IMG/VR virus record: IMGVR_UViG_3300049488_000015
Location: 1 to 58,930 of that record
Strand: one strand, 5' to 3'
Length of the DNA stretch: 58,930 bases
Source: a virus
Lineage: Duplodnaviria > Caudoviricetes
In this document: positions 13,174 through 23,303 of the stretch, piece by piece
How the letters are laid out: every line of letters starts with the position of its first letter
Position numbering within the stretch: position 1 is the first letter of the stretch
Notes under the pieces: model-generated
The model's input: only the letters and a program-made list of their open reading frames with translations
What the model was told of the DNA's origin: nothing
Databases searched by the model: none
Translations under genes and position numbers: made by a program

Positions 13174-14004
13174 ATGGCAATTCTTAATTTTGATGCAAAC
13201 ACCGTCGTACCGGATACCGGCAGTTTCGAAGCACTCCCGGCAGGCTGGTACAAGGTAATGATGGAATCGTCGGAAATGAAACCGACGAAGGACAACAACG
13301 GTTCGTATCTTGAATGCAAGTACAAGATCCTGGATGGGGTTCATAACGGCAAGAGCGTCTTCGGACGCCTTAACCTTCGCAATGTCAACGCCCAGGCTCA
13401 AGAAATTGCCTACAAGCAACTATCCGCGATTTGTCATGCAACCGGCATTCTGCAAGTTGCTGACTCTGCCCAACTGCACAACATTCCGCTCCAGATCAAA
13501 CTGAAGCTGCGCGAAGCTCGCAAGGAACTGGACGCACAAGGCAATGTGGTCAAGGAATACGAAGCCAGCAACGAAATTAGTGCGTACAAGAACATCAATG
13601 AACAAGTCGGCGCCCCGGCTGTCGGCGGTTTCCCTGCTCAAGTTGCTCCGCCTGCACCTGCTTTCATGCCGCCGCCTGCTCCTCCTGCTTTCGCTCCCCC
13701 GATGCAACAAGCACCGATGCAACAAGCACCGCAGTTTGCTCCGCCCCCTGCTGCCGCTGCACCTGCCGCGCAAGCCCCGCAATGGCAAGCACCGGCAGCG
13801 CAACAACCCTGGCAAGCCCCCGCCGCTGCCCCTATTGCTGCACCGCAGGCTCCTCAGTATGCTCCAGCTTCGGTTCAACAAGCTCCGGTTCAGCAGCCGC
13901 AAGCCCCTCAACAGTACGCCCCGGCGCCGGTTCCGGCAGTCAATCCGGCAGTTGTCCAAGCTGCAACTCCGCCTTGGATGCAGCCGCAAGCTCCGCAGGC
14001 TTAA
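13174..14004 (+). CDS. DUF669-family ssDNA-binding protein with Pro/Ala/Gln-rich tail
   Basis: FEALPAGWY...KPTKDNNGSYL...QLSAICHA...NEI; low-complexity C-terminal half. Confidence 0.85.
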   Translation: MAILNFDANTVVPDTGSFEALPAGWYKVMMESSEMKPTKDNNGSYLECKYKILDGVHNGKSVFGRLNLRNVNAQAQEIAYKQLSAICHATGILQVADSAQLHNIPLQIKLKLREARKELDAQGNVVKEYEASNEISAYKNINEQVGAPAVGGFPAQVAPPAPAFMPPPAPPAFAPPMQQAPMQQAPQFAPPPAAAAPAAQAPQWQAPAAQQPWQAPAAAPIAAPQAPQYAPASVQQAPVQQPQAPQQYAPAPVPAVNPAVVQAATPPWMQPQAPQA

Positions 14005-14064: not shown

Positions 14065-14601
14065 ATGATGCTTAGTTACAACGAACTCTGGCAACTATAT
14101 CACAACGGCGTCTTGCAAGACCTTGGAAGTACCGATCAAATACAAGGGTCTTCTATTGATGTAAGGCTTGGCAAGATTGTCATGGTTGAAAAACCGGGCG
14201 AACACCATATTGTGTTGCGTAATCGCGATGCAATGCAGATGGAATCGATTGATATTACCGATAACGGATTTGATTTAGGTCCGGGAGAGTTTATCCTTGC
14301 ACACACTGAAGAAATGTTCTTCATGCCTGATTATCTCAGCGCAACATTCCATCTCAAATCAACTTCCGCTCGGTCTGGCCTTGGTCATTTGCTTGCTGTA
14401 CATATTGATCCAGGATTTAATAATTCTACTTTGACCCTTGAAATTCATAACGTAAGTCGTTACCATACAGTAGAACTAAACAGGTACGACGCTATTGGAC
14501 AGATAATGTTTTGGCGTCACGAAGAAGTTCCTGACTTTGCATCATACAAGTCGCGAGGCCATTACAATAATGACAGAATCGTTAGCGGGGTGAAAAAATA
14601 A
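14065..14601 (+). CDS. dcd: dCTP deaminase
   Basis: SSIDVRLG, PGEFILAHT, KSTSARSGL, IDPGF, TLEIHN, IGQIMF. Confidence 0.9.
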   Translation: MMLSYNELWQLYHNGVLQDLGSTDQIQGSSIDVRLGKIVMVEKPGEHHIVLRNRDAMQMESIDITDNGFDLGPGEFILAHTEEMFFMPDYLSATFHLKSTSARSGLGHLLAVHIDPGFNNSTLTLEIHNVSRYHTVELNRYDAIGQIMFWRHEEVPDFASYKSRGHYNNDRIVSGVKK

Positions 14602-15503
14602 TGTATATCGCAACCAAGACTCTTGATCTAATTAATTCAATGATTCAAAAAGATCAAGGTGCAAAGTATCGTGAATGCTTGGGTAAGGTCATTAACCACA
14701 TTGGTGACGCTTACAATCCTGAAGAACAAACATTCCGAAGTCACCTTGGCGCTTCTATGATTGGTCGCGAGTGCGCCCGTGATATTTGGTACGGTTGGCG
14801 CTGGGCAGTTAAGCCTAATTTTGATGGACGTATGATTCGTCTATTCAACCGTGGCCATTTGGAAGAAGCTCGTTTCATTGCAATGTTCTTGATGATTGGT
14901 TGCGATGTATATCAACAAGATGCAAACGGTAAGCAATATCGTATTAGCCATGCTGAAGGTCACTTTGGCGGAAGTGGCGATGGTATAATTGTAGGTCTTC
15001 CGGATCTTGCCCCGGGAACTGCGGCACTTGCAGAATTTAAGACACACAATTCCAAGTCCTTTGCCAAGCTTGTTTCTGTTGGCGTAAAAGAAGCAAAGCC
15101 TGAACACTATGTTCAGATGAATACTTATATGGGCAAGATGGGTCTAGCTGTTGCCATATACGGCGCAGTTAATAAGGATAACGATGAATTGCATCTTGAG
15201 CTCATTGCTTATGATGCAAATGTTGCAGGTGAATTTCTTGACCGAGGCGAACGACTTGTTTGGATGGAAACGCCTCCGCCAAAAATAGGCTCAACTGTCG
15301 GCTTTTGGAAGTGCCGAATGTGCAATAATAAGGGTGTTTGCCATATGAGCGATGCACCGAACGTGAATTGTAGAACTTGCGAGTTCAGCCGACCAATAGC
15401 TGGAGCTCAATGGGAATGTACAAATCCAGTTTGTGCTGGAGTGATCCCTAAAGAGTTCATGCTCACTGGTTGTTCTCATTACGAAAAGAAGAAGGTATTT
15501 TAA
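14601..15503 (+). CDS. Cas4-like PD-(D/E)XK exonuclease
   Basis: LGASMIGREC, GSGDG, EFKT, QMNTY, C-terminal CRMC..C Fe-S ligands. Confidence 0.85.
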   Translation: MYIATKTLDLINSMIQKDQGAKYRECLGKVINHIGDAYNPEEQTFRSHLGASMIGRECARDIWYGWRWAVKPNFDGRMIRLFNRGHLEEARFIAMFLMIGCDVYQQDANGKQYRISHAEGHFGGSGDGIIVGLPDLAPGTAALAEFKTHNSKSFAKLVSVGVKEAKPEHYVQMNTYMGKMGLAVAIYGAVNKDNDELHLELIAYDANVAGEFLDRGERLVWMETPPPKIGSTVGFWKCRMCNNKGVCHMSDAPNVNCRTCEFSRPIAGAQWECTNPVCAGVIPKEFMLTGCSHYEKKKVF

Positions 15504-18655: not shown

Positions 18656-19363
18656 ATGAATCAACAAGCAATAGAAAAAGCCGTTTCATCTGCAGACGGT
18701 TTCTTGGAAGTACATAGTATCTTCCATACAATCCAAGGCGAAGGCCCTTTTTGCGGAACTCCTGCAATCTTTATACGCCTCGCTGGATGCAATCTTCAAT
18801 GCCCAAGCTGCGATACAGACTACACTTCCAAACGGGAGCGTATACCTGCAAATATCATACTCCAACGTTGTGTTAATTTTTCAACAAAGGGTTTGATTGT
18901 TATCACAGGCGGGGAACCGTTTCGGCAGTCTATTGGACATTTGATCGCGCTCCTCACAGGGTTCGGCTATTATGTCCAAGTTGAGTCGAACGGAACTCTC
19001 CCGCCACCTCCTCAGATTGTGTGGTCAAAAAAGCCGCAAGATCGCAAAGGTGCTTATATTGTTTGCAGCCCCAAGGCAGGTCGGATCAATACCCTATTGG
19101 AACGAGAAGCCTGTGCCTTCAAATATGTCATCAGCAATGATGAACAGAACGAAAGCGATGGTCTGCCTACAAAAGTTTTAGGTCATAGTGCTCACCCTCA
19201 AGTGGCACGAGCCGTCTTCCGCGGTAGGCCTGTATATTTGCAACCAGCAGACGCACACAACGAAGAAGCAAATTGGTTGAACAATCAAGCTGCGGTTTCG
19301 TCGTGTATGAAACATGGTTATATTCTGCAATTGCAAATCCACAAATATCTCGATCTGGAGTAA
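18656..19363 (+). CDS. queE: 7-carboxy-7-deazaguanine synthase (radical SAM)
   Basis: IFHTIQGEG, RLAGCNLQCPSCDT, ITGGEP, ESNG, SPK, QIHK. Confidence 0.95.
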   Translation: MNQQAIEKAVSSADGFLEVHSIFHTIQGEGPFCGTPAIFIRLAGCNLQCPSCDTDYTSKRERIPANIILQRCVNFSTKGLIVITGGEPFRQSIGHLIALLTGFGYYVQVESNGTLPPPPQIVWSKKPQDRKGAYIVCSPKAGRINTLLEREACAFKYVISNDEQNESDGLPTKVLGHSAHPQVARAVFRGRPVYLQPADAHNEEANWLNNQAAVSSCMKHGYILQLQIHKYLDLE

Positions 19364-19366
19364 CCC

Positions 19367-20155
19367 ATGAAAAAAGCCCTTGTTGTCCTCTCCGGCGGAC
19401 AAGACTCCACGACTTGCCTTTTTTGGGCAAAGCGTTATTTTGACGAAGTTCATGCAATCACATTCAACTACGGTCAGCGTCATATGATTGAAATCGATTC
19501 TGCAAAAAAGGTTGCAGAGATGGCCGGAGTTGTGAGCCATGAAATCATTGATGTTCCGAACTGTCTTATCTCAATGTCGCCTTTGACAAGCAACAACGAT
19601 CTGGAAAAGTATGAAAATGCTCAACAGATGGAAGAAATCATCGGGAACCGTCGTGAGCTGACCTTTGTTCCGATGCGGAACGCACTGTTCCTGACAATTG
19701 CTGCCAACCGAGCAGAAGCTCTTGGCATCCCCAATATCGTGACGGGTGTTTGCCAAATGGACAATGCCAATTACGATGATTGTCGTGCAACATTTATCGA
19801 TGCTACGACCGAGTATATCAACTATGCGCTCGGTCACGATCACCGTGGAACCGAACCCATTCGCATTCATACGCCTTTGATGACTCTGAGCAAAGCTCGC
19901 AGCGTCAATATGGCATTTGGAATGCCTGACTGTTGGGAAGCTCTTGCATACAGCCACACAAGCTATGACGGCAAATATCCCCCGACGGATATGAACCATG
20001 CAAACGTTCTTCGTGCTCAAGGCTTCGAAGAAGCAGGTCTTCCGGATCCTCTTGTTGTCCGTGCTTTCCATGAAGGTCTTATGGAACTTCCGAAGACCGC
20101 CAACTACTTGCATATCACAAAAGACAAGAAGGTGGTTCCCTATGCACACGGCTGA
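19367..20155 (+). CDS. queC: 7-cyano-7-deazaguanine synthase (atypical, lacks Zn cysteines)
   Basis: LSGGQDSTT, FNYGQRH, TFVPMRN, YDDCR, TPLM.LSK. Confidence 0.92.
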   Translation: MKKALVVLSGGQDSTTCLFWAKRYFDEVHAITFNYGQRHMIEIDSAKKVAEMAGVVSHEIIDVPNCLISMSPLTSNNDLEKYENAQQMEEIIGNRRELTFVPMRNALFLTIAANRAEALGIPNIVTGVCQMDNANYDDCRATFIDATTEYINYALGHDHRGTEPIRIHTPLMTLSKARSVNMAFGMPDCWEALAYSHTSYDGKYPPTDMNHANVLRAQGFEEAGLPDPLVVRAFHEGLMELPKTANYLHITKDKKVVPYAHG

Positions 20156-20618
20156 ACGTTATCACGACATTTCATGTGGTCATCGAGTTGTTGGCCACGA
20201 GAACAAATGCAGGCACTTGCATGGTCATAACTATCGTGTTCATTTTGTGTGTGCTGCACAAAAGCAATGTGAATCGCTTGACCACATTGGTCGCGTTATC
20301 GACTTCACAGCAATCAAGGAAAAGCTGTGCATGTGGATTGAAGACAATTGGGACCACAAATTTCTTGCCTGGGAACAAGATCACGTGATGCAGTTTGCAA
20401 GTAAGTCTATGCAAGAAATGTCAAATGGGGATATAACACAATCTGTTATTTTTGATAGTTCTATTGTTTGGACACCTTTCAATCCAACTGCTGAAAACAT
20501 GGCAAAGTATCTTGTTGAAGTTATTGCGCCCATGCAGCTTGAAGGAACCGGCGTTGAATTGATCAGCTGCAAGATTGAAGAAACCATGAAGTGCTCTGCA
20601 ACCTATCACAAGGAATAA
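20142..20618 (+). CDS. queD: 6-carboxy-5,6,7,8-tetrahydropterin synthase
   Basis: GHR...KCRHLHGHNY, WDHKFL, NPTAENMA, EET; start set at ATG 20142 after AAGGTGG. Confidence 0.93.
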   Translation: MHTAERYHDISCGHRVVGHENKCRHLHGHNYRVHFVCAAQKQCESLDHIGRVIDFTAIKEKLCMWIEDNWDHKFLAWEQDHVMQFASKSMQEMSNGDITQSVIFDSSIVWTPFNPTAENMAKYLVEVIAPMQLEGTGVELISCKIEETMKCSATYHKE

Positions 20619-20620
20619 AA

Positions 20621-21526
20621 ATGTCCAAGACAATTCTCAACCATGGAAACATCGGGGATTTGGCACATACCGTTCGCGAAGCAATTATTGCATCTGGTTT
20701 GATGTTTGCACGATGCTATCCAATCCCTCGTGGCGGTGTGGCTGCGGCATATGCGGTTTATAACTCATCCTGTCCGTTTGCTATTGTCAATACACCGGAA
20801 GAAGCAGACTTCTTTATTGACGACATCATTGATTCCGGTGAAACGATGCGTCGTTACTGCGACGAATACCCAGGCAAGATGTTCTTTGCTCTTATTGACA
20901 AGCTCAATGGCGAATACGCCAACGAATGGGTCGTGTTTCCTTGGGAAGTTACTTCCGAAGGTACTGACGAATCTGCAACAGATATTGTCACCCGTCTGTT
21001 GCAATTTGTCGGCGAAGATGCAACTCGTGGCGGTCTTCTGGAAACTCCGCACCGTGTTCTGAAAGCCTGGAAGCATTGGTGTGGCGGTTACGATCTTGAC
21101 GCAAAGTCTGTCCTCAAAACATTCGAGGACGGTGCGGAGAACTGCGATGAAATGGTCGTTCGTGTTGTTCCTTTCTACTCTCATTGCGAACATCATATGG
21201 CCGCTATTATTGGCCATGCTGTTGTGGCTTATGTTCCAAATTCGAAGATTGTAGGATTGTCCAACATTGACCGTGTTGTTGATATGTTTGCCCGGCGTCT
21301 GCAAGTTCAAGAACGTCTGACAAACCAAATCGCAGAAGCGATCATGGAAAACCTTGAGCCCAAGGGCGTCGGGGTCTGGGTGAATGCTCGTCACCTTTGC
21401 ATTGAATCTCGCGGTGTCCGCAACCAGAATTCGGTTACAGATACATTAGCACTTCGTGGTGTATTCAAGGAAGATGCCCGTACTCGTGCAGAGTTCATTG
21501 CAGTGGCTCGGACTAAAGTGCAGTAA
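20621..21526 (+). CDS. folE: phosphoribosyltransferase-like domain fused to GTP cyclohydrolase I
   Basis: N-terminal PIPRGG, FFIDDIIDSGET, WVVFPWE; C-terminal GLLETPHRV, SHCEHH, RRLQVQERLT, HLCIESRG. Confidence 0.92.
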   Translation: MSKTILNHGNIGDLAHTVREAIIASGLMFARCYPIPRGGVAAAYAVYNSSCPFAIVNTPEEADFFIDDIIDSGETMRRYCDEYPGKMFFALIDKLNGEYANEWVVFPWEVTSEGTDESATDIVTRLLQFVGEDATRGGLLETPHRVLKAWKHWCGGYDLDAKSVLKTFEDGAENCDEMVVRVVPFYSHCEHHMAAIIGHAVVAYVPNSKIVGLSNIDRVVDMFARRLQVQERLTNQIAEAIMENLEPKGVGVWVNARHLCIESRGVRNQNSVTDTLALRGVFKEDARTRAEFIAVARTKVQ

Positions 21527-21643: not shown

Positions 21644-22135
21644 ATGACCCCCGCACAATTAGCAAAAACAGGCAGCGAATCTGCACATCAAATTGCACTG
21701 TTTGCATGGGCTTCTGTTGCCTACAATCATGGGTTTGAACTTGCCCAGTTATGGTTGGATGGAGGCAATGTTGCTGTAGATACATTGTCGGAACCTGCTG
21801 TACCGGAACTCAAATGGATTCACCACATTCCAAACGGTGGAAGTCGTGGTAACGATGTTCGCTCGCAGCAAATTCGCGGAGCTAAACTTAAAGCTGAAGG
21901 CGTTCGTTCCGGAGTGAGCGATATCTGTTTGCCTGTTCGCCGTGCAGGTTGCAGCGGACTCTATATTGAAATGAAACGTCCTTCGGAAAAGCCTAAGCGT
22001 GAAGGTTCCCGCGGAGGTATATCGGATGAACAGCGCGACTTTGGCGCATTTATTCAATCACAAGGTTTCGGATTTGTTGTGTGTTATAGTTGGGAAGAAG
22101 CACGTGACATTATTATTGCCTACCTGAAATCATGA
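21644..22135 (+). CDS. VRR-NUC domain nuclease (putative resolvase)
   Basis: ESAHQ, HIPNGG, LKAEGVRSGVSD, LYIEMK, SDEQ. Confidence 0.88.
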   Translation: MTPAQLAKTGSESAHQIALFAWASVAYNHGFELAQLWLDGGNVAVDTLSEPAVPELKWIHHIPNGGSRGNDVRSQQIRGAKLKAEGVRSGVSDICLPVRRAGCSGLYIEMKRPSEKPKREGSRGGISDEQRDFGAFIQSQGFGFVVCYSWEEARDIIIAYLKS

Positions 22136-22386
22136 AACGAATTCTTATCTCTGCTTATTGTAAGATACACGCGGATTACTATGCTAGGGAAGTTCTTAAA
22201 ATCTCTAGCAGCCAATGGTATTTCATTAATGACGCTTATAGAATACGCGGTCAGCGAGGTAGGGGGTTGATTTTTGTAAATGCCCCAAGGCATAGACCAT
22301 CGCTTGTTGAGATGGAAAAACGTGACTATCTTTTTGAAACTTGCCTTGCTTGGGGAATTGATATTAAACGAGTTGAACTTTCATGA
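22132..22386 (+). CDS. hypothetical protein
   Basis: ATGA overlaps on both sides. Confidence 0.65.
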   Translation: MKRILISAYCKIHADYYAREVLKISSSQWYFINDAYRIRGQRGRGLIFVNAPRHRPSLVEMEKRDYLFETCLAWGIDIKRVELS

Positions 22387-23303
22387 ACCTTTTTCTCGCT
22401 GCTGTATATACAAACGCCTACAAGCCTGGGCAGAACCGTTATCTAAAGCTTAACGAACACGAGCAAGCAATTGTTCAAGATTTGCCGCATATTCTGGAAT
22501 CGTACCACTATGTTGGAAGCCAGCGCATTGTAGATCAAATGCGAGCAGACGGTGCAAAGGTCTTCCTTGACTCCGGTGCGTTCTCTGCACATAGTCTTGG
22601 AGTTGCAATTTCAATTGAAGACTATTGCGAATACATTAAACGCAATATGGACATATTGAGGGTTGAAGATGGAGCAGTCATGGCATCTGTGCTGGACGGC
22701 ATTGGCGATCCCCTCCAAACATGGCGGAATCAGCTTGAAATGGAATTACGAGGTGCTAAACCGCTCCCATGCTTCCACTTTGGAGAAGACACCCGTTATC
22801 TTGACTGGTACATTGAAAGATATGACTACATCACGATAGGCGGTATGGTTGGAAAATCTACCGATACATTAATAACCTGGCTTGACCGTATTTGGGAAAA
22901 GCATCTTATTGACGGTTCTGGAAATGCAAAAATTAAAGCCCATGCGTTCGGCATTACTTCTGTTTCTATTATGGAGCGTTATCCTTGGTATAGCTGTGAC
23001 TCTTCATCCTGGATTCAGTCTGCTGCTTTCGGTTCTATAGTTTCCCCAGACTACGGCCCCTTATCCGTTTCGGACAAGTCTCCAAGTAGGCACGACTTTG
23101 GAAGGCATGTGACCACATTAACTCAGCCTGAGCAAGATTACGTCTTAGCTATGCTTGAGCGCCAGGGTTTTACTATGGAACGCCTCTCAACTGTTTATGA
23201 GTCAAGAGCTGCCTATAACTTGTGGTCATACGGTATAATTAATGCTATGGTGAATGCTGGTAAAGCAAAAGGGAAACATATCATGGCACAGGAGCTATTC
23301 TGA
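22383..23303 (+). CDS. dpdA: TGT-like DNA base-exchange enzyme (DpdA-type 7-deazaguanine insertase)
   Basis: FLDSGAFS, LDGIGD, PCFHFGE, IGG, HAFG, SCDSSSW TGT-fold motifs; sits between the que cluster and the polymerase. Confidence 0.8.
   Translation: MNLFLAAVYTNAYKPGQNRYLKLNEHEQAIVQDLPHILESYHYVGSQRIVDQMRADGAKVFLDSGAFSAHSLGVAISIEDYCEYIKRNMDILRVEDGAVMASVLDGIGDPLQTWRNQLEMELRGAKPLPCFHFGEDTRYLDWYIERYDYITIGGMVGKSTDTLITWLDRIWEKHLIDGSGNAKIKAHAFGITSVSIMERYPWYSCDSSSWIQSAAFGSIVSPDYGPLSVSDKSPSRHDFGRHVTTLTQPEQDYVLAMLERQGFTMERLSTVYESRAAYNLWSYGIINAMVNAGKAKGKHIMAQELF

Follow-up and report, generated by a model that had tools for sequence, protein, structure and literature searches.

A purine phosphoribosyltransferase-like domain fused to GTP cyclohydrolase I in a phage deazaguanine cluster

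The fusion gene and the deazaguanine cluster

The window, by which we mean the whole stretch of 58,930 nucleotides that was analysed, is a 99%-complete genome of a member of the Caudoviricetes (IMG/VR record IMGVR_UViG_3300049488_000015). Its plus strand carries, in this order, genes for a QueE-like radical SAM protein (CDG synthase; 18656..19363; phrog_2076 [E 1.3e-54], with a weak match to the Radical_SAM Pfam family), QueC (19367..20155; PF06508 [E 2.7e-51]), QueD of the PTPS family (20142..20618; PF01242 [E 2.2e-24]; ATG start read from the ORF), a fusion of a small phosphoribosyltransferase (PRT) domain with FolE (20621..21526), a VRR-NUC nuclease-like protein situated between folE and dpdA (21644..22135; PF08774 [E 1.3e-6]; phrog_824) and a DpdA-type DNA guanine transglycosylase (22383..23303; phrog_887, “queuine tRNA-ribosyltransferase” [E 3.3e-87]). 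[quoted passage not shown] The genome encodes a single PRT, and no ribonucleotide reductase large subunit was found in the 99% of it that the window represents.

The fusion gene is an open frame without internal stops, specifying a product of 301 aa (P0001). Its ATG at 20621 follows the TAA stop of queD (20616-20618) and an AAGGA sequence (20610-20614), and a comparison of N-termini indicates that the homologues share this start position. A frameshift or a wrongly chosen start as the source of the N-terminal domain was ruled out, the ribosome-binding site, the start and the N-termini of the homologues being concordant. A GTG at 20591, giving a 311-aa ORF, was likewise rejected as the start; it overlaps queD, and the homologues start at the ATG. 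The protein has two domains, and its full-length AlphaFold2 (AF2) model reaches pLDDT 94.5 and pTM 0.82.

The second of these, residues about 118-297 (Pfam 122-295; 20984..21505), matches the GTP cyclohydrolase I family PF01227 [E 9e-64] and exceeds the NCBIfam cut-offs for both NF006825 (222.8 bits against 174) and TIGR00063 (211.4 against 181.6). With Foldseek it matches FolE of T. thermophilus (1wm9; TMt 0.92, 49% identity). The catalytic and metal-binding motifs C-E-H-H and H-x-C are present as C189-E-H191-H192, H258 and C260. Conservation, here and below, was scored over 189 distinct (non-identical) fusion proteins; C189, H191, H192 and H258 occur in all of them, C260 in 188. On these matches the C-terminal domain is unambiguously predicted to be an ordinary GTP cyclohydrolase I, which would start preQ0 synthesis.

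One residue departs from the family. The codon at 21263..21265 (plus strand) reads AAC, so that the window has G-L-S-N (Asn215) where its relatives have G-L-S-K, a peculiarity that the earlier note had already picked out; position 215 is Lys in 188/189 proteins and Asn solely in the window. The invariant Lys presumably contacts the triphosphate. In contigs from the best-matching public run (probably the source sample, hence not independent) no single listed piece spans the gene; one long piece stops and the other begins within 21259-21286, an interval that includes codon 215, and each of the two carries one differing letter. Two loose contig ends from a low-share public run, translated by eye, read G-L-S-K.

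The N-terminal domain

Residues 1-109 (20621..20947) precede the FolE domain. Taken as a single sequence they are difficult to classify. The general PRT family PF00156 matches at E 0.058 (13.2 bits, cut-off 26.3), over residues 66-81 only and short of the gathering threshold, and a precomputed match to it is present in 2/120 relatives, among the matches listed. A phmmer search of the domain against the PDB gave no match at E ≤ 10. The NCBIfam XGPRT equivalog NF006613 reaches E 9e-4, with 18.8 bits for the domain and 16.2 for the whole protein where the cut-off is 138; phrog_8995 matches at E 4.7e-6. The XGPRT equivalog is nonetheless the best NCBIfam family both for this domain and for 6/6 of the phage and Prochlorococcus relatives tested, and the stand-alone phage relatives (31.9-94.1 bits) fall under its cut-off too.

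As the PRT assignment is weak from a single sequence, it was settled by family profile and fold searches. A profile of the N-domain family matches XGPRT chains in the PDB at E 1.1e-10 and HGPRTs at 1.6e-3 or worse; the alignment falls into two stretches, family positions 1-61 corresponding to XGPRT 1-58 and 67-112 to XGPRT 85-140. The AF2 model of the domain (pLDDT 95.0, pTM 0.87) has the α/β core of the PRT fold. Its best PDB match with Foldseek is E. coli XGPRT (4jls; E 9.5e-6, TMq 0.70), the top matches are the E. coli and Y. pestis XGPRTs, and every listed match at E ≤ 1e-3 is to a purine PRT or a protein resembling one. The nearest ESM-Atlas clusters comprise proteins of 110-154 aa, mainly viral, described as “putative phosphoribosyltransferase”. 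These results confirm that the N-terminal ~110 aa are an XGPRT/Gpt-like type I PRT domain preceding a canonical FolE. The earlier note, which had recognized type I PRTase hallmarks and a Gpt-like character in the first ~109 aa and placed the fusion in a deazaguanine cluster, is borne out on each of these points: the motifs PIPRGG, FFIDDIIDSGET and WVVFPWE lie where it had put them, the purine PRT identity and the fold are those which it proposed, and the Pfam and phrog matches place the fusion within a queE-queC-queD-folE-...-dpdA cluster.

PIPRGG (residues 34-39; 20720..20737) aligns with the S-R-G-G (PPi) loop of XGPRT, and the residue numbering of the two proteins is the same up to G39; its conservation is 0.99 for P36, 0.98 for R37, 0.99 for G38 and 1.00 for G39. 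The PRPP-binding motif FFIDDIIDSGET (residues 64-75; 20810..20845) consists of a hydrophobic run, two acidic residues and D-[ST]-G-x-T (D67 D68 .. D71 S72 G73 x T75) and aligns with IVIDDLVDTGGT of XGPRT; D67, D68, D71 and G73 are conserved in 100% of the fusions, S72 in 97% and T75 in 99%. Lys94 (20900..20902) aligns with the Lys of the FAKPAG segment of XGPRT and is a Lys in 179/189 proteins (95%). WVVFPWE (residues 103-109; 20927..20947) closes the PRT fold at its C-terminus and aligns with TWIEQPWD of XGPRT (W103 0.98, F106 0.97, P107 1.00, W108 0.99, E109 0.99); the stand-alone phage PRTs terminate at a motif of this type. An acidic linker (residues 110-121; 20948..20983) joins the two domains; its columns 110-117 are variable or gapped, and in the full-length model it has the lowest pLDDT of any block (85). 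In the purine pocket of XGPRT we take Lys to contact O6, Trp to stack on the base and Asp to lie near N7; K94, W103 and D71 align with this Lys, with the Trp and with the third Asp of XGPRT, and are 95-100% conserved.

Two segments of XGPRT are absent: a hairpin of ~26 residues carrying the mobile loop (~59-84) and a shorter stretch of ~10 residues (~119-128). Counted from RGG through the PRPP motif, the loop-less forms span 38-41 residues and canonical Gpt-like proteins 61-65. The mobile loop of the 6-oxopurine PRTs seals the transition state (PMC5081515, PMC11089518), and the profile alignment skips XGPRT 59-84, where this loop lies. The suggestion that the domain is short and may be degenerate is thus half correct: it is short, through two defined deletions which include the mobile catalytic loop, but the ligand-binding motifs that remain are strongly conserved, far beyond chance. 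Because the retained motifs are 95-100% conserved in the 189 fusions, the ligand-site residues are under selection and the domain is not decaying. Judged from the alignments, it is a streamlined XGPRT descendant which has kept the PPi loop, the PRPP/5’-phosphate motif, and the putative Lys and stacking Trp of the purine pocket.

Loss of the loop raises the question of a regulatory function. A loop-less PRT might bind a ligand (PRPP, GMP/GTP, ppGpp or a 7-deazaguanine base) and tune the activity or assembly of the FolE decamer, with no useful catalysis of its own, in the manner of GFRP on mammalian GTP cyclohydrolase I or of PurR and PyrR with their PRT-like effector domains. Several features are consistent with this. 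The fusion partner’s substrate is not the product of a PRT; the pTM of 0.82 for the two-domain chain suggests a fixed arrangement of the domains; ppGpp-binding PRT folds are among the structural neighbours (5vog); GFRP complexes illustrate how protein binding can regulate decamers of the FolE family; and conserved phosphate- and base-binding motifs suit binding as well as catalysis. On the other hand, conservation extends to R37 in the PPi loop and to D71, for which a nucleotide sensor would have no obvious need. Together with the occurrence of related proteins in other settings, given below, this makes a sensor in our opinion possible, if unlikely.

Occurrence of the fusion and of stand-alone relatives

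The fusion is not confined to the window phage. FolE was matched in 393 phage records in GenBank, 34 of which have the PRT domain at its N-terminus, as do 77/81 metagenomic viral loci; nearly all of these lie inside queE/queD/(queC)/dpdA clusters, and DpdA homologues are found downstream of the fusion in 71/81 of the viral loci. Cultured phages of the NP1/PaMx25 and VpKK5 types are among the carriers. What the earlier note described in one phage is in this sense a large family. The PRT domain is joined to two types of FolE, respectively 59-81% and 36-40% identical to that of the window, while related E. coli phages such as GottfriedDienst have a FolE without it. The database records label the fusion proteins “GTP cyclohydrolase I” alone, and for this reason the PRT domain is invisible to annotation-based surveys. 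A link between PRTs and FolE or deazaguanine is not discussed in the literature that we searched, though the supplementary gene tables of PMC10516641 and PMC6884629 may list PRT genes. The pairing of PRT and FolE appears to be common in deazaguanine phages and previously unremarked.

It could be argued that the domain is a structural or vestigial appendage, the remnant of an ancestral gpt gene kept purely for FolE solubility or oligomerisation, with no ligand-dependent role. It is truncated, it misses the curated family thresholds, and many dpdA phages manage without it, as the above proportion of FolE-matching records indicates. However, the near-identity of the PRPP, PPi and purine-pocket positions in 189 proteins, in which other N-domain positions vary freely, and the retention of the domain with two different FolE types, argue for a role, and we consider a mere appendage highly improbable.

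Three unrelated deazaguanine phages have a separate XGPRT-like gene beside or among the que genes. In Flavobacterium phage immuto_2-6A (gp211) it lies immediately upstream of folE, in Brevundimonas phage MaInes (MaInes_00780) immediately downstream of it, and in Synechococcus phage BUCT-ZZ01 between queE and queD. Cellulophaga phage phiST (CGPG_00045) and the CP220-type Campylobacter phages each possess an XGPRT-like gene. In phiST a MazG-like pyrophosphatase gene adjoins folE, and in MaInes genes for a dNMP kinase and a ribonucleotide reductase (RNR) adjoin the folE-PRT pair. MT835497, which is unannotated, has a PRT match and no FolE or Que match within 6 kb on either side.

Loop-less forms occur apart from FolE as well. 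A viral contig (L025) encodes a stand-alone loop-less PRT and no FolE, and at 24 picocyanobacterial loci the gene next downstream of a loop-less PRT gene encodes a nucleoside 2-deoxyribosyltransferase, whose start the PRT gene overlaps in L108; this neighbourhood is a base-salvage setting. The stand-alone loop-less forms, their deoxyribosyltransferase neighbours and the viral ESM-Atlas clusters indicate that the domain probably has a function of its own. These Prochlorococcus and viral proteins are unexpected of a dedicated FolE regulator, and the loop-keeping XGPRT-like proteins which occupy the same slot in phiST and MaInes look like enzymes; both observations weigh against a sensor.

Possible roles and comparison with known systems

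The protective modification of phage DNA with 7-deazaguanines is currently described as the work of FolE, QueD, QueE, (QueC), tailoring enzymes and DpdA. The published accounts of the pathway that were consulted do not address the fate of the guanine which DpdA expels or how the drain on GTP is balanced.

The explanation that we rank first, with a probability of roughly 40%, is that the PRT domain serves guanine salvage, which was also the first idea put forward in the earlier note; we infer in this case catalysis by the domain, guanine as its substrate, a connection with DpdA and a benefit to the phage. The domain would bind PRPP and a 6-oxopurine and join them into the nucleoside monophosphate; the base used in the infected cell would be the free guanine expelled from phage DNA as DpdA inserts preQ0. 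Host kinases would raise GMP to GTP, the substrate of the fused FolE, closing a cycle from DNA-G through guanine, GMP, GTP and preQ0 back to DNA. Salvage would also clear a base that competes with preQ0 at the transglycosylase, and the fusion would supply salvage capacity one-for-one with the GTP-draining enzyme. The quantities may be considerable: the window genome contains 26,933 G, and with assumed values of 10-25% replacement, 100 genomes and a 1-fL cell, 0.45-1.1 mM guanine would be released and an equal amount of GTP consumed.

We count in favour of guanine salvage the XGPRT identity of the domain, the selection on its ligand site and the signs that it functions on its own, and also that the PRT-FolE link is found in several arrangements, namely as a fusion, with two FolE types and as separate neighbours. 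Release of guanine would be largest in phages that replace all of their G, and the XGPRT-like genes of the CP220-type phages and immuto_2-6A, along with that of phiST, are counted for the same reason. Furthermore, the purine-pocket residues are alike in fusion loci with (n=49) and without (n=22) a QueC match, which a common ligand such as guanine fits better than a variable end product. Against this, the deleted segment is a large mobile loop and an enzyme lacking it may turn over slowly or not at all; two kinase reactions separate GMP from the substrate of FolE, so that the fusion cannot channel a metabolite; a non-catalytic domain binding PRPP or a nucleotide would show the same conservation of motifs; and the PF00156 and XGPRT scores are far under the curated cut-offs. 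The GottfriedDienst-like E. coli phages suggest that the domain is dispensable in some hosts, and with its unique K215N at an otherwise invariant Lys the FolE copy of the window is perhaps less than fully active.

Alternatively, the base that the domain couples to PRPP might be CDG, preQ0 or one derived from them, giving a nucleotide for a pre-replicative polymerase route, for storage, for export or as a decoy. There is a precedent in TubE, a proven CDG:PRPP phosphoribosyltransferase from a cluster with FolE, QueD and QueE homologues, of which ToyH is the presumed preQ0 (toyocamycin) counterpart (PMC6112128). In immuto_2-6A and BUCT-ZZ01 the XGPRT-like gene is part of the que cluster, phiST and the CP220-type phages also have one, and complete replacement of G has been reported for the CP220-type Campylobacter phages and for immuto_2-6A, a DpdA3 phage. 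The MazG-like pyrophosphatase beside folE in phiST and the dNMP kinase and RNR in MaInes are consistent with such a route, and removal of the loop might, speculatively, make room for a 7-substituent. But the window phage encodes DpdA, a user of the free base, and has the one PRT and no detected RNR large subunit; the pocket residues are alike in QueC-plus and QueC-minus clusters, in which the bases made should differ; and searches of the PDB by profile and by fold match XGPRT best, not HGPRT-type enzymes. A 2023 study moreover concludes that deazaguanine insertion is post-replicative in all the phages that it examined. We consider this alternative quite improbable for the window protein. In its boldest form, an XGPRT-derived PRT that phosphoribosylates a 7-deazaguanine base like TubE as an overlooked, recurrent part of phage deazaguanine systems would, on our analysis, be a long shot.

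Whichever of these applies, a PRT module joined to, or beside, the first enzyme of the pathway in many unrelated phages suggests purine bookkeeping within the system, and the PRT domain offers a concrete and readily assayed protein for this idea. If catalytic it would be, to our knowledge, the smallest 6-oxopurine PRT, working without a mobile loop, and would be relevant to PRT enzymology; if a sensor, we know of no earlier built-in regulator of a microbial FolE. A PRT acting on deazaguanine bases would imply that deazaguanine can also reach the DNA as a nucleotide, through a polymerase, beside base exchange by DpdA, could explain complete G replacement in some phages, and would contradict the current view of purely post-replicative insertion.

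Among characterized proteins the closest to the N-domain, by profile and by fold, is XGPRT (Gpt) of E. coli and Yersinia (1a95, 4jls, 5xtk, 6kp5; NF006613). The two have in common the SRGG/PRGG loop, the IDDxxD[ST]GxT motif, the aligned Lys and the W-x-x-x-P-W-[DE] end, and differ in that the N-domain has 109 aa against 152, lacks the two segments described and is fused to FolE. The PRT of phiST, a phage whose DNA carries dDG, belongs to the same family as the fusion N-domain (hhalign with the family alignment, probability 98.9%, E 2.7e-17) and is its top BFVD fold match. The stand-alone PRTs of deazaguanine phages share LIDK and W[IV]VFPWE motifs with the N-domain, and those of phiST, immuto_2-6A, MaInes, BUCT-ZZ01 and CP220 come from phages with FolE, QueD and QueE genes, often beside folE. 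Among them the loop hairpin is kept in phiST and MaInes, kept in part in CP220 and absent in immuto, in which the second segment remains.

TubE, according to PMC6112128, is a “phosphoribosylpyrophosphate transferase” of 194 aa, 39% identical to ToyH. TubE and ToyH resemble the fusion in being purine-type PRTs encoded with FolE, QueD and QueE homologues, and PF00156 is present in tubercidin-type clusters. Unlike the fusion, TubE stands alone, in Streptomyces secondary metabolism, leads to a nucleoside antibiotic and involves no DpdA. The earlier note’s statement that the canonical pathway includes no PRTase holds for queuosine and the DNA deazaguanines, with TubE as a precedent from the deazapurine nucleoside antibiotics. 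Gat-QueC provides a precedent for an extra domain on a preQ0-pathway enzyme that alters the outcome of a phage pathway; there, in contrast to PRT-FolE, QueC is joined to a glutamine amidotransferase domain with an established role in making G+. Lastly, GFRP, a module on a FolE-family decamer which transmits small-molecule signals, is the functional analogue of a sensor domain; it is unrelated to the N-domain in fold, forms a polypeptide of its own and comes from eukaryotes, its target being the GTP cyclohydrolase I of mammals.

The fusion gene and its cluster

The mini-PRT-FolE gene (20621-21526, plus strand) is a single open frame encoding 301 amino acids. Its ATG lies three bases past the QueD stop codon, with AAGGA six bases upstream, and homologues of the product have their N-terminus at the same residue. 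By every measure residues 122-295 are a GTP cyclohydrolase I: they match PF01227 [9e-64], the scores exceed the cut-offs of the NCBIfam FolE models, and the FolE part of the full-length AlphaFold model superposes on Thermus FolE with a TMt of 0.92. The cluster runs QueE (18656-19363), QueC (19367-20155), QueD (20142-20618), the fusion gene, a VRR-NUC protein (21644-22135), a small ORF and a DpdA-type transglycosylase (22383-23303; phrog_887, 3e-87) in a virus record that is 99% complete. A published account of Queuovirinae-like phages gives the same gene order (PMC10484667). At 14065-15503, upstream of the replication genes, start and stop overlap between a gene for a dCTP deaminase-like protein (PF22769, 1e-26) and one for a Cas4-domain exonuclease (phrog_1990, 2e-106); a 276-amino acid ORF at 13174-14004 has as its C-terminal half an extreme Pro/Ala/Gln-rich low-complexity tail.

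The earlier note had read GLSN in place of the FolE motif GLSK, and this is borne out: residue 215 is Asn (AAC, 21263-21265), a position occupied by Lys in 188 of 189 relatives. In E. coli FolE this Lys presumably contacts the triphosphate. Public contigs gave no confirmation of the base: in the run with the best coverage the two long contig pieces end or start within 21259-21286, right across codon 215. Asn215 could reflect true hypomorphic variation, polymorphism within the population or an error of assembly.

The N-terminal domain as a relative of XGPRT

Taken as a single sequence, residues 1-109 gave PRT signals that are suggestive only (PF00156, 0.058; the XGPRT model, 9e-4; phrog_8995 "phosphoribosyl transferase", 4.7e-6), and no match to the PDB by phmmer. 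An exhaustive HMMER search recovered 476 representatives at E ≤ 1e-3, and a profile made from 83 of these matched XGPRT chains of the PDB at 1.1e-10, the other purine PRTs scoring much worse. The AlphaFold model obtained with the same alignment (pLDDT 95.0, pTM 0.87) has a PRT fold, for which Foldseek returned E. coli and Yersinia XGPRT as the best PDB matches (E about 1e-5, TMq 0.70). Family profile and fold thus uphold the earlier note, which had placed a PRTase-like domain ahead of FolE.

Alignment with XGPRT falls into two blocks, family positions 1-61 with XGPRT 1-58 and 67-112 with 85-140, leaving XGPRT residues ~59-84 without a counterpart; the stretch at about 119-128 (~10 residues) is missing as well. 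As judged against the canonical Gpt-like proteins recovered, the first gap corresponds to the hairpin that links the RGG helix to the PRPP strand. Two papers on 6-oxopurine PRTs (PMC5081515, PMC11089518) describe this hairpin as a large mobile loop which, in transition-state complexes, becomes ordered and covers the active site. Because the gap falls on this hairpin, the domain is a loop-less mini-XGPRT, a relative of the XGPRT family and not a member by curated thresholds.

Conservation was assessed in 189 non-identical fusion proteins, taken from the fused viral loci (270-410 amino acids) and from the 120 database clusters listed (280-360 amino acids); longer intein-bearing forms and fragments were excluded. 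G39, D67, D68, D71, G73 and P107 are 100% conserved, P36, G38, T75, W108 and E109 99%, R37 and W103 98%, S72 and F106 97%, and K94 95%; most of the remaining N-domain positions vary freely. When aligned with XGPRT, the conserved residues fall in the PPi loop, in the PRPP/5'-phosphate motif and, with K94 and W103, on what we take to be the Lys and Trp of the purine pocket. Such a pattern indicates a domain that is not decaying. It had been called short and possibly degenerate: short it is, with XGPRT segments absent, but motifs conserved at 95-100% speak against degeneracy, and they contradict the reading of the domain as a mere vestige, which we consider very improbable.

Distribution of the fusion and of stand-alone forms

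The fusion proved to be recurrent. With the N-domain as query, tblastn matched 34 GenBank phage records (Pseudomonas phages of the NP1, PaMx25, JG012 and JG054 types, Vibrio phages of the VpKK5 types, and Stenotrophomonas, Xanthomonas, Variovorax and Sphingomonas phages), in each case beneath a GTP cyclohydrolase feature or in an unannotated record; the FolE part, for comparison, matched 393. Of 173 candidates in the protein database, 143 were fusion clusters at E ≤ 1e-3. From IMG/VR the best 80 of 278 related stretches were kept, and 81 viral loci were examined, an earlier pair being counted in. Domain and FolE share a single frame in 77 of the 81. At locus L020 they are in frame and the FolE alignment extends 6 nt beyond the ORF stop, at L038 the fusion is cut off by the contig end, and L025 encodes a stand-alone protein of ~140 amino acids, no FolE being found on its 38-kb, 62%-complete contig. 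On viral contig L030 (7986-8908) the two parts are out of frame with each other (frame +2), through either a frameshift or a sequencing error. Matches to QueE occur at 78 loci, to QueD at 62, to QueC at 56 and to DpdA at 71; the ten loci without a DpdA match are mostly short or truncated.

Two FolE types share the same N-domain, one short and 59-81% identical to that of the window, the other longer and only 36-40% identical. Some fusions (P0126, P0167, L028:7995-9737) reach ~580 amino acids because an HNH-endonuclease intein is inserted in FolE at about Pfam model position 70. The 230-amino acid protein P0114 has the same N-domain and, where FolE would otherwise lie, about 110 residues that match no Pfam family.

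Among ESM-Atlas clusters the nearest, "putative phosphoribosyltransferase" proteins 110-154 amino acids long, are mostly viral. Outside phages, loop-less stand-alone homologues (128-148 amino acids) are found in Prochlorococcus and Vulcanococcus genomes, at about 30 loci, and in 24 picocyanobacterial loci a nucleoside 2-deoxyribosyltransferase gene (PF05014) comes after the mini-PRT; at L108:7926-8776 it overlaps the PRT stop. On four Dehalococcoidia chromosomes (L102:7926-8804, L103, L113, L117) a mini-PRT is joined to a divergent domain resembling FolE, in which C-E-N-H and Y-x-C replace the C-E-H-H and H-x-C of FolE; the ~8 kb on either side gave no match to Que or DpdA.

Proposed guanine salvage and comparison with other deazaguanine phages

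We rank guanine salvage first among the possible roles, with a probability of roughly 0.4. For each base inserted DpdA frees one guanine and one GTP is spent; PRT activity would send the freed guanine back to the GTP pool and would also clear a base that competes with preQ0 for the transglycosylase. The genome contains 26,933 G, and with assumed values of 10-25% replacement, 100 genomes and a 1-fL cell the release comes arithmetically to about 0.45-1.1 mM. Salvage is favoured by the kinship with XGPRT and not HGPRT, the salvage-type partner gene (PF05014) in Prochlorococcus and the existence of stand-alone forms. Against it stand the loss of the mobile loop and the two kinase steps that separate GMP from the FolE substrate. 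That same loss, fusion to FolE in itself and a compact two-domain AlphaFold model (pTM 0.82) favour a ligand sensor regulating FolE, the main rival and less probable than salvage; stand-alone and loop-bearing relatives speak against it. The purine pocket is unchanged between fusion clusters with QueC (49) and without it (22), which also favours salvage. A deazapurine PRT has a real precedent in TubE, the CDG:PRPP PRT of tubercidin biosynthesis, and would be the most exciting option for phages with full replacement; it is improbable here, a poor fit because DpdA is present, RNR is absent and the pocket is invariant. Functions outside these readings take the remaining probability.

The best viral fold match of the N-domain is a 142-amino acid "phosphoribosyl transferase" of Cellulophaga phage phiST (hhalign probability 98.9%, 2.7e-17), which, unlike the window's domain, keeps the mobile loop. 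Its relatives occupy 34 phage records: 15 Campylobacter (CP220, CPt10, CP21 and others), 5 Cellulophaga, 4 Flavobacterium immuto, 2 Brevundimonas, 1 Synechococcus, 2 other, and 5 Vibrio fusions. For all the separate phage PRTs the XGPRT equivalog is the best match, with every score below its cut-off. In immuto_2-6A a loop-less PRT gene (131 amino acids) lies directly upstream of folE within QueD-QueE-...-PRT-FolE-...-DpdA-...-QueF; in Brevundimonas phage MaInes it is directly downstream of folE, after RNR and dNMP kinase; in Synechococcus phage BUCT-ZZ01 it falls between queE and queD; in CP220 it is two genes ahead of a radical-SAM gene; and in phiST it lies in the RNR region, 19 kb away from the FolE-QueE-QueD cluster. 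In that cluster (L162 47175-48384) a MazG-like pyrophosphatase gene overlaps the folE start, which would suit dGTP or GTP pool control. Published reports describe dG as fully substituted with dADG in Firehammervirus Campylobacter phages, the DpdA3 subfamily (encoded by immuto_2-6A) as allowing complete guanine replacement, and dDG in phiST DNA. Salvage is favoured both by the loop-bearing, enzyme-like versions in phiST and MaInes and by the PRTs of phages for which replacement of all G is reported.

The main texts of the central phage-deazaguanine papers and of the iggy/Queuovirinae paper do not contain "phosphoribosyl", and that of the 2019 phage-deazaguanine paper also lacks the strings "PRT", "salvage", "gpt" and "recycl". 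A full-text search for phage XGPRT with deazaguanine, most subscription journals lying outside its scope, found no paper; among the listed matches of a second search (7 of 9), none concerns a PRT-FolE link as judged by title and abstract. Supplementary gene tables may list these PRTs. Individual stand-alone phage genes do carry PRT annotation in GenBank, one Campylobacter phage record reading [quoted passage not shown], and therefore the pieces have already been seen by annotators; the fusion itself bears no annotation other than FolE. In phages that replace guanine in their DNA by 7-deazaguanines, FolE is thus found time and again linked to an XGPRT-derived domain, its PRPP/purine site intact and strongly conserved, its mobile loop absent.
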